Below the pieces are notes generated by a model that ran no database searches, was not told where the DNA came from, and worked only from the letters and a program-made list of their open reading frames with translations. Below, piece by piece: positions 13,726 to 16,020 of a DNA stretch of 64,000 bases (its first letter is position 1; the number at the start of each line of letters is the position of its first letter). Source of the stretch: Escherichia coli (GTDB lineage Bacteria; Pseudomonadota; Gammaproteobacteria; Enterobacterales; Enterobacteriaceae); assembly GCF_003018235.1 (NCBI RefSeq), contig NZ_CP027439.1; one strand, given 5' to 3'. Both the position numbers and the translations under genes were made by a program.

Positions 13726-14070
13726 TTGCGGAAGGAATACGTGGACGAACAAAAACTTTTTGATGAGCTGAATGAGAATGGCCACCGGTTCGTGTGGTAT
13801 CTCTGCGAACCTGGTCTTGTACATCCGGACGGGATCTCCCCTGATACTCAGTTCATCGTTGATCAGAACGGGAAGGAACTGGCCCGCCGGTTAAATATTC
13901 ATGAACAGTCAGAAGATGGCTGGCGAATCGACACCTGGCACGCCAGAGATTTTGGAGGGCTGCCGGAAAGTGCTCTGAAGGTGGATTTGCATCTGCTGTT
14001 AACCCGGATTCTTATCGGAGAAACGGGTTCGATGTTTTCGTGGCCCTTTTTCCTGTCCGAAGAAGAGTGA
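13726..14070 (+). CDS. Hypothetical protein (TTG start in ORF track)
   Basis: 114-aa ORF directly upstream of and same strand as the IS-disrupted gene; no recognisable motifs. Confidence 0.3.
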   Translation: MRKEYVDEQKLFDELNENGHRFVWYLCEPGLVHPDGISPDTQFIVDQNGKELARRLNIHEQSEDGWRIDTWHARDFGGLPESALKVDLHLLLTRILIGETGSMFSWPFFLSEEE

Positions 14071-14108
14071 TCATAATGATGGGCAGGATTTCTCTTTAAG
14101 GAAAAAAC

Positions 14109-14581
14109 ATGGCTGACTGGTTTATTGCCACCGAGGGTGTGAAAGTAGTTAAAGACAGCGCCAGCCTGTGGCCACAGATCATCACGGCGGTTTCATCAAT
14201 TGGTGCTGCTCTGGGTGGTGTTTGCCTGACTCATCACTATGCCCGCAGCCACGAAGAAAAAGCTGCGTCGTCCAGGCGTCAGGCTGAGCTGTATTTCATT
14301 TCTACGGAGCTGGTCTTTCGTCTCGAACGTTACGCTCAAGAATGTGCTGATGTCGTCAAAGACGAAGGTCAGGAAGATGATAAGGGATACACAAGGACGA
14401 CCGTAAGCGCAGAGGCATTTTCTGCCGATGATATTGACGGCGACTGGCGGGTACTACCGGCCAGAATCATGTACCGCATCCGGGAACTGACAGTACTGAT
14501 CCCTGAAGCAAACCGGTATATAAGCGTTATCTACGAGTTTGATGCCCCACCTGACTGGCAAATGACATTCAGGGAACGCAG
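14109..14581 (+). pseudogene. Hypothetical membrane-anchored protein gene interrupted by IS insertion (5' part)
   Basis: N-terminal TM segment (WPQIITAVSSIGAALGGVCL); the ORF stop codon lies inside the IS inverted repeat; the reading frame resumes after the IS. Confidence 0.6.
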
Positions 14582-14653
14582 TGTAGTGGCACAGTAAGTT
14601 TGGCCACCTGATTAAAGGTGATATTCTCACCTCAACACAAAACAGGTGACTTA

Positions 14654-14965
14654 ATGAACAAGAAAACCAAACGTACTTTCACCCCCGAGTTCAGACTGGA
14701 ATGTGCGCAACTGATTGTTGATAAGGGCTACTCATATCGACAAGCCTGTGAATCGATGAATGTCGGCTCTACCACTCTTGAGAGCTGGGTACGTCAGCTC
14801 AGACGAGAGCGCCAGAGGATTGCCCCCTCTGCCACACCGATTACTCCAGACCAGCAACGTATCCGCGAGCTGGAAAAGCAGGTTCGCCGCCTGGAGGAAC
14901 AAAATACGATATTAAAAAAGGCTACTGCACTCTTGATGTCCGACTCGCTGAACGGTTCACGATAG
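14654..14965 (+). CDS. IS3-family transposase OrfA (HTH)
   Basis: [26 protein letters not shown]...[17 protein letters not shown] closely resembles IS911 OrfA. Confidence 0.9.
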
Positions 14966-15063
14966 TTGCCAGACTCAGTGGCAGCCACACCGTTGTCAGT
15001 CTGTGTTCTGCTCTGGGAATACACCGCAGCAGTTACCGGTACTGGCAAAAACGACGCGATACG

Positions 15064-15831
15064 GTGAATCCGGTGCATGTCAGGTTGTGCAGTGAAATAC
15101 GCCGGGTGTGGAACCAAAACCGGGTCTCTGCGGGGGCGCGCACGCTGGCTGACATGCTGACCCAAAACGGCGTCCCGATGAGCCGTTACCGTGCCGGGCG
15201 GCTGATGAAACATCTGAATCTGAGCAGTTGTCAGCCCGGAAAACATCAGTACAAAAATGCCCGTCAGGAGCATACCTGCTTGCCGAATCTGCTCGGGCGC
15301 CAGTTCGCTGTCCCCGAGCCAGACCAGGTATGGTGTGGAGATATTACCTATATCTGGGCCGGAAATTGCTGGTGCTATCTGGCGGTTGTGATGGATCTTT
15401 TTGCCCGCAGGGTTATCGGCTGGAGTCTGTCCGCACATGCCGATACTGCACTGATAAGCGATGCCCTGCGGATGGCCTATGAGACGCGTGGTCAACCACA
15501 TGATGTTATGTTCCATAGCGACCAGGGAAGCCAGTATACAGGACTGAAATATCAACAAATTCTCTGGCGTTACAGAATAAAGCAAAGTGTCAGTCGGCGG
15601 GGAAACTGCTGGGATAATAGCCCAATGGAACGCTTCTTCCGCAGTCTGAAAACAGAATGGGTGCCAGCGAATGGTTACGTCGACAAGGACGAGGCCCGGC
15701 AGCAAATTAATGATTACATATTGAACTACTACAACAGTGTCAGACCTCACCATTATAACGGTGGGTTGACACCGGAAGAGTCCGAGAATAGGTACCATTT
15801 TTACTGTAAAACCGTGGCCAGTATTACTTGA
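15064..15831 (+). CDS. IS3-family transposase OrfB (DDE catalytic domain), expressed as OrfAB via -1 frameshift
   Basis: DDE integrase motifs; frame is -1 relative to orfA and open from the A AAA AAG heptamer at 14914..14920. Confidence 0.9.
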
Positions 15832-15842
15832 CCACTACACAG

Positions 15843-16020
15843 ATATCAGCATTCACGGCTTGGGATGCGTGCCGTTTTACTGGCCAAACGATTGAGGAAG
15901 CTTAATGGTATGCCTTCCTCAAATCTTGATAATGGCAGTTGCTGGTCTGTACAACATGTATTGTGGACTGAGTGGAGGAAACAACGAAAATCCAGAGCCA
16001 GAATGGCATGCCCGGGTACC
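15843..16020 (+). pseudogene. 3' part of the IS-disrupted gene
   Basis: After removing the IS and one CAG copy, the 14109 frame continues to a TAA at about 16018..16020. Confidence 0.5.

Follow-up and report, generated by a model that had tools for sequence, protein, structure and literature searches.

An IS3-family insertion splits a PDC-S67-like gene upstream of a ResD-type recombinase gene on an Escherichia coli plasmid

Layout of the locus

The insertion sequence (IS) described here lies in a 64,000-nt stretch of Escherichia coli contig NZ_CP027439.1 (assembly GCF_003018235.1; hereafter the window, with positions counted from its first base), where it splits a gene, here called S67 after its match to the PADLOC profile PDC-S67, that lies upstream of a gene for a tyrosine recombinase. 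A first-pass annotation made from the sequence had described an intact IS3-family element that recently inactivated a two-gene module of unknown function next to the recombinase. The insertion itself is ordinary; the new point is that the broken gene shares an operon with the plasmid's ResD recombinase. The genetic unit consists of an rfsF-like region, orf109, S67::IS, orf144, and resD, with the following features:

13519..13600, + strand: conserved non-coding element, present upstream of every ResD operon examined
13741..14070, + strand: orf109, first gene of the operon, intact; the exact 109-aa protein occurs on 48 contigs
14109..14581, + strand: 5′ part of the S67 gene (codons 1–157 plus 2 nt); truncated product annotated as WP_249926979.1
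14579..14581, no strand: left copy of the CAG target-site duplication, from the sequence and empty-site alleles
14582..15839, + strand: IS3-family, IS911-like IS, with left inverted repeat (IRL) 14582–14607, right inverted repeat (IRR) 15814–15839, orfA 14654–14965, A6G site 14914–14920, and orfB frame 14908–15831
15840..15842, no strand: right copy of the CAG target-site duplication, from the sequence and empty-site alleles
15843..16023, + strand: 3′ portion of S67, from the last nt of codon 158 through the stop codon, with 7 of 16 invariant residues
16087..16521, + strand: orf144, phrog_26837 family, overlapping resD by 4 nt
16518..17300, + strand: resD-type tyrosine recombinase, 86% identical to F ResD

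The interrupted gene and its empty-site alleles

Removal of the IS and one CAG joins 14109..14581 to 15843..16023 in a single 654-nt open reading frame (ORF) of 217 aa, which is one continuous frame as first proposed, with an exact length slightly above the original estimate of ~215 aa. IS-free alleles were sought by searching the plasmid collection with the reconstructed region and were recovered from the E. coli O55:H7 plasmid pDEC5B-4 (NZ_CP038392.1; DNA 99.9% identical) and from Salmonella IncFIB plasmids (94%), in both of which the region is annotated as an uninterrupted 654-nt gene for a “hypothetical protein”. These alleles encode 217-aa proteins that are 99% (E. coli) and 97% (Salmonella) identical to the restored product, and an IS-free allele with exactly the restored protein was found on three short E. 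coli contigs. In both independent alleles the empty-site junction reads GGGAACGCAG|ATATCAG, with a single CAG, so the CAG repeats flanking the IS are a 3-bp target duplication, as the first-pass annotation had read them, and not a chance 3-bp match. The two flanks thus belong to one gene, and no IS-free allele with another frame or junction was found.

The IS cuts the gene after codon 157, within codon 158, leaving a truncated product of 162 aa whose last residues, SVVAQ, are derived from the IS. Because the insertion takes away the last 60 residues of S67, including 7 of the 16 positions that are invariant in the family, the truncated protein is almost certainly non-functional, to judge from conservation. 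The supposed inactivation of a two-gene module therefore holds for S67, which is disrupted, but not for the upstream orf109, which is intact.

The IS3-family element

Sequence inspection placed an intact IS3-family element of 1258 bp at 14582..15839, in a single copy within the window. Its arms are imperfect inverted repeats of 26 nt (~25 bp in the first-pass annotation) that begin with TG, giving TG...CA termini; the left end reads TGTAGTGGCACAGTAAGTTTGGCCAC and the right end, in reverse complement, TGTAGTGGTCAAGTAATACTGGCCAC, with 20 of 26 positions matching, and a repeat search returned 27 nt at 78% complementarity. CAG lies directly outside both ends, at 14579–14581 and 15840–15842. Within the element, orfA runs from an ATG at 14654 to a TAG at 14965 (103 aa) and orfB occupies the −1 frame relative to orfA, open from 14908 to 15831; the expected slippery heptamer A AAA AAG (A6G type) falls at 14914–14920, within the orfA/orfB overlap. 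The two frames would be joined by a programmed −1 frameshift, as in the IS3 family, into a predicted OrfAB fusion. This conceptual OrfAB matched NCBIfam NF033516, “IS3 family transposase”, with 368.5 bits (cut-off 160) over positions 1–368 of 369, and Pfam searches returned HTH_Tnp_1 in OrfA (3e-13) and HTH_21, rve (1e-28), and rve_3 in OrfB. The DDE motifs have IS3-type spacing, with D, D, and E at residues 230, 290, and 326 of OrfAB and one motif reading DNSPMERFF. Thus, the features by which IS3-family members are recognized were all found, namely the two-ORF layout with an A6G site, helix-turn-helix (HTH) and DDE/rve domains, TG...CA repeats, and the 3-bp duplication.

The RefSeq annotation of the product is limited to “IS3 family transposase”. 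Among named elements it resembles IS911, which has the same length of ~1.25 kb, TG...CA repeats, an HTH in orfA, DDE/rve in orfB, a 3-bp target duplication, and an outward −35-like TTGACC in IRR. The context of the slippery site is also nearly the same, being ATATTAAAAAAGGCTAC in this IS and ATATTAAAAAAGGCTACC in what we take to be IS911; however, OrfA is only ~50% identical to what is presumably the OrfA of IS911, and this IS is therefore a different element. The closest copies, 98.6–99.1% identical, are in four E. coli plasmids, and relatives, mostly 90–95% identical, occur in hundreds of plasmids of enterobacteria and in ~2100 of the 5426 complete E. coli genomes.

Several smaller features of the element were recorded. 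A GGAGG at 14894–14898, 15 nt 5′ of the A6G site, may act as an internal Shine-Dalgarno-like stimulator of frameshifting; RNA 3′ of the site folded no better than shuffled sequences (z −1.1), giving no sign of a stimulatory structure there. The TTGACC in IRR, at 15828–15833, is of the type that makes a junction promoter in circularized IS3-family elements. The Rfam family isrC (RF01387, “Hfq binding sRNA”) matched 14650–14772 (+ strand) over its full length with 130 bits (E 5e-32); the match falls exactly on the start of orfA and so represents transposase coding sequence here, not an independent small RNA gene, and it suggests that the isrC family was derived from an IS3-family remnant. A longer IS, suggested by a megablast match to chromosomes of extraintestinal pathogenic E. 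coli that reached 13 bp into the left flank, was rejected upon inspection, which showed chance resemblance in the flank.

Spread and age of the insertion allele

The junction made by this IS was found in no complete RefSeq E. coli genome; the exact 162-aa truncated product is, though, annotated in public E. coli draft assemblies (WP_249926979.1). The same left junction was recovered from at least 10 other samples (loci L025–L034; NCBI, ENA, and SRA-derived assemblies), and the right junction is also the same wherever contigs extend, with 0–3 mismatches over 3575 bp. The allele has three left-hand contexts, specifically LysR/ADH/SDR genes as in the window, VapBC with a YadA-like gene, and Rep3 with SMODS genes, and homology between the plasmid backgrounds breaks at ~13346–13363, just upstream of the conserved non-coding element. 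The identical junctions in all three contexts thus trace to a single ancestral insertion that subsequently moved among plasmid backgrounds. The insertion is consequently recent only in a relative sense, being an established allele in those samples and in several plasmid backgrounds.

The window itself is part of a mosaic plasmid. Positions 5400–13363 (the ADH, SDR, and LysR genes) are 99.6% identical to E. coli plasmid NZ_CP051728.1, whereas 21256–25000 (the part from 21.3 kb, with RelE/ParE and Phd/YefM toxin-antitoxin genes and ParA/ParB) is 99.7% identical to pDEC5B-4, and each PLSDB record taken alone covers less than 80% of the first 25 kb. Other alleles in which S67 is intact, on E. coli contigs L035 and L038 (5771–6999), carry, in the 63 nt that separate S67 from orf144, a different IS3-family element whose two ORFs (121 and 301 aa) are IS2-like; since this spacer element differs from the one in the window, the operon has been a target of IS insertion on at least two independent occasions.

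Linkage of S67 to ResD

The recombinase downstream of the split gene is 86% identical over 252 aa to ResD, the rfsF multimer resolvase of the F plasmid, whose gene directly follows ccdB, and contains a Pfam Phage_integrase domain (7e-19); 16518..17300 thus encodes a ResD-type tyrosine recombinase, a plasmid multimer resolvase. S67 loci were surveyed from a genome scan, contig look-ups, and annotated plasmids (linkage loci L001, L002, L005–7, L011–16, L018–21, and L043–48), and in nearly all of them a ResD homolog starts −4 to about +150 nt after S67, often with a 4-nt overlap (ATGA). The linkage spans IncR, IncI-gamma/K, and IncFIA/FIB plasmids, Serratia, Hafnia, Pantoea, Erwinia, Klebsiella, and Enterobacter, and an Atlantibacter chromosome, and it holds with S67 down to 36–41% identity and ResD at 65–78%. 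The exceptions are a truncated Citrobacter braakii copy, a Pectobacterium island, an E. coli chromosomal fragment, and a distant plasmid homolog 700 bp from a recombinase. The first-pass annotation had placed a two-gene module merely beside the recombinase; the survey corrects this picture, as S67 is consistently paired with the ResD-type recombinase immediately downstream, and the small upstream ORF is replaceable. The converse does not apply: ResD orthologs (≥80% identity) are present in at least 5000 plasmids versus 2018 plasmids with S67, and ResD therefore does not need S67.

The layout resembles rfsF-ccdAB-resD of F in the 86% identical ResD, the shared conserved non-coding element upstream, and the placement of cargo genes between element and resD. 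It differs in its cargo, the window having orf109, S67, and orf144 where F has ccdA and ccdB; no homology was found between S67 and CcdB, nor any conservation with F downstream of resD. The slot upstream of resD is occupied by an unrelated 137-aa gene in ColIb-P9, and in many Klebsiella and Citrobacter plasmids the orf144 family stands in it alone. IncR plasmid p56661-46.1 and an IncI-gamma/K plasmid have a 116-aa ORF, an S67 homolog, and resD in the same order as here, next to vagCD or parM, but their S67 proteins are 42–49% identical, their small ORFs belong to an unrelated family, and orf144 is absent. In IncR plasmids, rfsF-resD has been described as part of the backbone and a recombination hot spot (PMC9412624).

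The non-coding element at 13519–13600 contains the invariant blocks CGTnnTACACTTCCGGAAA, TCGGATC, and GGTAATT and an 8-bp palindrome, TTCCGGAA. It is present upstream of ccdA in F and in the ResD operons of ColIb-P9, IncR, and IncI-gamma plasmids (besides the window, the F plasmid at L041 ~3037–3202, nt ~46,04x–46,2xx, and L042, L019, L021, L005, L007, L046, L002, and L052). In F, rfsF sites have been placed upstream of ccdAB-resD (PMC4398462); in IncI1 plasmids, a variable region that carries the phage-inhibition genes ibfA and pifA ends at rfsF (PMC8004404), and rfsF has been described as a break point of plasmid homology in both IncR (PMC9412624) and IncI1 (PMC8004404). By position and conservation, the element is probably the rfsF or ResD-binding and promoter region of the operon.

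The small upstream gene, orf109

The ORF preceding the split gene had been given as 114 aa from a TTG at 13726 in a mechanical ORF list, whereas public annotation gives 109 aa from a GTG at 13741. AAGGAA lies just upstream of this GTG and the exact 109-aa protein is found on 48 contigs, and the gene probably starts there. It is a real conserved gene, as first supposed, with a family of 31 clusters at ≥63% identity and 33 invariant positions, and with a ratio of nonsynonymous to synonymous substitution rates (dN/dS) of 0.50 against its Lelliottia homolog; searches of Pfam, NCBIfam, PADLOC, and PHROG gave no match, and the AlphaFold2 model (predicted local distance difference test, pLDDT, 53) was unusable.

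As a partner of S67, however, orf109 is confined to one sub-clade. In Klebsiella and Enterobacter plasmids (L043–L048), a 65%-identical orf109 homolog lies 39 nt upstream of a 50–54%-identical S67, followed by ResD, which supports a linked pair within this sub-clade only, though not an obligatory one. At IncR, IncI-gamma, and Hafnia loci the orf109 position is taken by an unrelated ORF of 116–121 aa, and Pectobacterium punjabense has a third type, these replacement ORFs being ~100–120 aa long overall; Salmonella plasmids carry S67 without an adjacent small upstream ORF. Conversely, a Lelliottia plasmid has an orf109 homolog, then an unrelated 180-aa protein, and then resD, without S67. Homology among the small-ORF families was not significant (BLASTP E about 0.01, hhalign probability ≤9%), and an L-x3-GH-x2-(L/V)-W motif common to them is only suggestive. 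A possible kinship of orf109 with ibfA of ColIb-P9, which at 345 nt is the same size as the 114-aa ORF, was discarded, since comparison found no relationship.

The S67 family

The restored 217-aa protein matched the PDC-S67 hidden Markov model of PADLOC (E 5.2e-39, 131.8 bits) over residues 33–210, covering positions 6–185 of the 203-position profile, and also matched phrog_33426 (E 1e-47). The family comprises 327 clusters at 90% identity, all “hypothetical” and mostly from Enterobacterales plasmids, and is found in 2018 of the 72,556 plasmids in PLSDB (about 2.8% of sequenced plasmids). The earlier label of a gene of unknown function is thus apt in that Pfam and NCBIfam contain no matching profile, but it is incomplete, as the interrupted gene is a member of a known, uncharacterized candidate family. 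PDC-S67 is one of 145 phage-defense candidates put forward in PADLOC by “guilt by embedding” in BREX, DISARM, and type I restriction-modification (RM) loci, which were stated to be untested (Payne et al., bioRxiv 10.1101/2024.01.29.577857). It is listed there as a single-gene candidate, whereas in the window and nearly all homologous loci the gene is part of a resD operon on a plasmid and is often preceded by a small ORF. A literature search found no paper naming PDC-S67, and the name was also absent from the PADLOC paper supplements examined.

More distant relatives form 901 clusters at 50% identity (E up to 0.001). Members are roughly 180–250 aa and single-domain, and the best 150 of the 901 clusters, with lengths of about 70–256 aa, contained no domain fusions. 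An alignment of 57 sequences has 16 invariant columns, dN/dS is 0.18 against the Salmonella allele, and S67 is by these measures a real gene under selection. The AlphaFold2 model (pLDDT 82; predicted template modeling score 0.69) has a 20-residue N-terminus that is disordered yet conserved, then a hydrophobic helix from residue 21, matching the transmembrane helix noted in the first pass, which continues as a long helix; the four-helix bundle is completed by a hairpin and three further helices. The distribution of charges flanking the hydrophobic segment suggests, by the positive-inside rule, a single-pass membrane protein with a periplasmic N-terminus and the bundle in the cytoplasm.

Decayed or displaced copies were also seen. 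S67 is frameshifted in Klebsiella oxytoca (L045, 4373–4998) and lacks both its N-terminus and resD in Citrobacter braakii (L008, 6001–6507), and the resD homolog of a Buttiauxella locus is split by about 1.3 kb (L009, 6625–8724). An E. coli chromosome (OU349844.1; L036, 5.37 Mb, at ~5,051–5,062 kb) carries orf109 and an intact S67 near murI, btuB, and trmA but without orf144-resD, and this copy has the look of a piece of plasmid that either integrated into the chromosome or was joined to it during assembly.

Origin and consequences of the insertion

Very probably, an IS911-like element transposed into the second gene of an rfsF-like/orf109/S67/orf144/resD operon. By the established biology of the IS3 family, the element would have been excised as a circle and integrated with a 3-bp staggered cut (copy-out/paste-in), so that insertion at codon 158 duplicated the CAG target. 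S67 was thereby truncated and has almost certainly lost its activity. The IS separates the presumed rfsF-proximal promoter from orf144-resD, and transcription of these genes is therefore probably reduced as well, which would lower resD expression by polarity. In the flank of the IRR TTGACC (15828–33), no acceptable −10 could be read from the sequence. Our best guess is that S67 is accessory cargo within this operon and contributes to phage exclusion (abortive infection) or to plasmid stabilization. In F the corresponding slot is filled by ccdAB, and pif and ibfA genes lie just upstream of rfsF in F and IncI1 plasmids. We do not think that S67 is a co-factor required for ResD.

Several observations weigh against parts of this interpretation. 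A consensus scan found no + strand promoter, either upstream of orf109 or internal, and no terminator or promoter signal above shuffled expectation, a result that speaks neither for nor against polarity. Profile searches of Pfam and NCBIfam, as noted, gave S67 no functional label, it has no catalytic homology to any function, and a fold search in BFVD returned one uncharacterized phage protein only. The IS allele persists in many isolates, and any cost of the insertion is therefore small. Finally, the near-obligatory link to the recombinase could mean that S67 was carried into BREX and RM loci as a passenger on a mobile module, and its reading as a defense gene would be the weaker for it.

Possible roles of S67

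The roles considered were ranked with phage exclusion ahead of a toxin-antitoxin-like pair and an accessory function for ResD, the remainder being left to roles of another kind. Our tentative first choice is that S67 is a phage-defense effector, acting by abortive infection or exclusion, in which case the IS switched off a plasmid immune gene, for example one that was costly. Besides the match to PDC-S67 (E 5e-39), this is consistent with the neighbors at many S67 loci, which include Abi_2, SMODS+S_4TM, KAP NTPase (PifA-like), TrlF ATPase, RES, DUF4365/NUDIX, HNH, and VapBC, and with the contents of the region by rfsF/resD, which holds pifA/pifC in F and ibfA and pifA in IncI1 (PMC8004404). 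Inactivation also recurs in the family (the IS here, the frameshift in L045, and the truncation in L008), and such turnover is typical of defense genes. However, PDC-S67 is a candidate proposed by embedding and goes unnamed in the papers found, the fold is uninformative, and stand-alone defense genes are not usually tied so closely into one operon with a housekeeping plasmid recombinase.

A broader proposal, which is more doubtful, is that enterobacterial plasmids use the slot from the rfsF-like region to resD as a general “cargo bay”, autoregulated by ResD, for interchangeable stability or defense modules, with ccdAB (F), orf137 (ColIb-P9), orf144, and S67 with varied small partners among its contents. 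PDC-S67 would then be a new class of membrane-anchored effectors, for phage exclusion or post-segregational killing, with expression wired to the recombinase.

It is unlikely that S67 and orf109 act as an addiction pair of the toxin-antitoxin kind, analogous to ccdA-ccdB, in which S67 would be a membrane toxin and orf109 its antidote. The arrangement is the same as rfsF-ccdA-ccdB-resD of F, a small ORF lies 18–64 nt upstream of S67 in most loci, the pair is conserved together in L043–48, orf109 at 65% and S67 at about 52% identity, and the small partners are fast-evolving and replaceable. Nevertheless, S67 occurs without an adjacent small ORF in Salmonella plasmids (L002) and Atlantibacter (L007), the orf109 homolog of the Lelliottia plasmid occurs without S67, and the upstream ORFs represent three or more families that show no significant similarity (hhalign probability ≤9%). 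Only the position resembles ccdAB, as neither protein matched known toxin or antitoxin families in Pfam or NCBIfam. The IS allele, which leaves a putative antitoxin without its toxin, neither supports nor contradicts the pairing.

The least probable of the ranked roles is that of an accessory factor of ResD/rfsF multimer resolution, tethering or timing it at the membrane or septum in loose analogy with FtsK-XerCD, in which case the IS would cripple the resolution system: S67 is almost never found without resD directly downstream, often translationally coupled to it by the ATGA overlap, and across loci the two proteins tend to diverge together, but S67 has well under half as many plasmid hosts as ResD, is absent from the ResD operons of F and ColIb-P9, evolves far faster (36–57% identity versus 65–88% for ResD), and is disrupted in an allele that persists in many isolates.

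Significance

The insertion is routine, as IS knockouts of plasmid accessory genes are common and this allele is already in public assemblies. As annotations, the S67-ResD linkage and the conserved element upstream are of modest use and do not amount to discoveries. Natural pairs of IS-bearing or frameshifted and intact alleles are available for functional tests of S67. For the family, the main consequence is that proteins labeled “hypothetical” and listed in PADLOC as a stand-alone candidate are almost always encoded just upstream of ResD, in the position held by ccdAB in F, and this linkage should be weighed before PDC-S67 matches are counted as defense systems.

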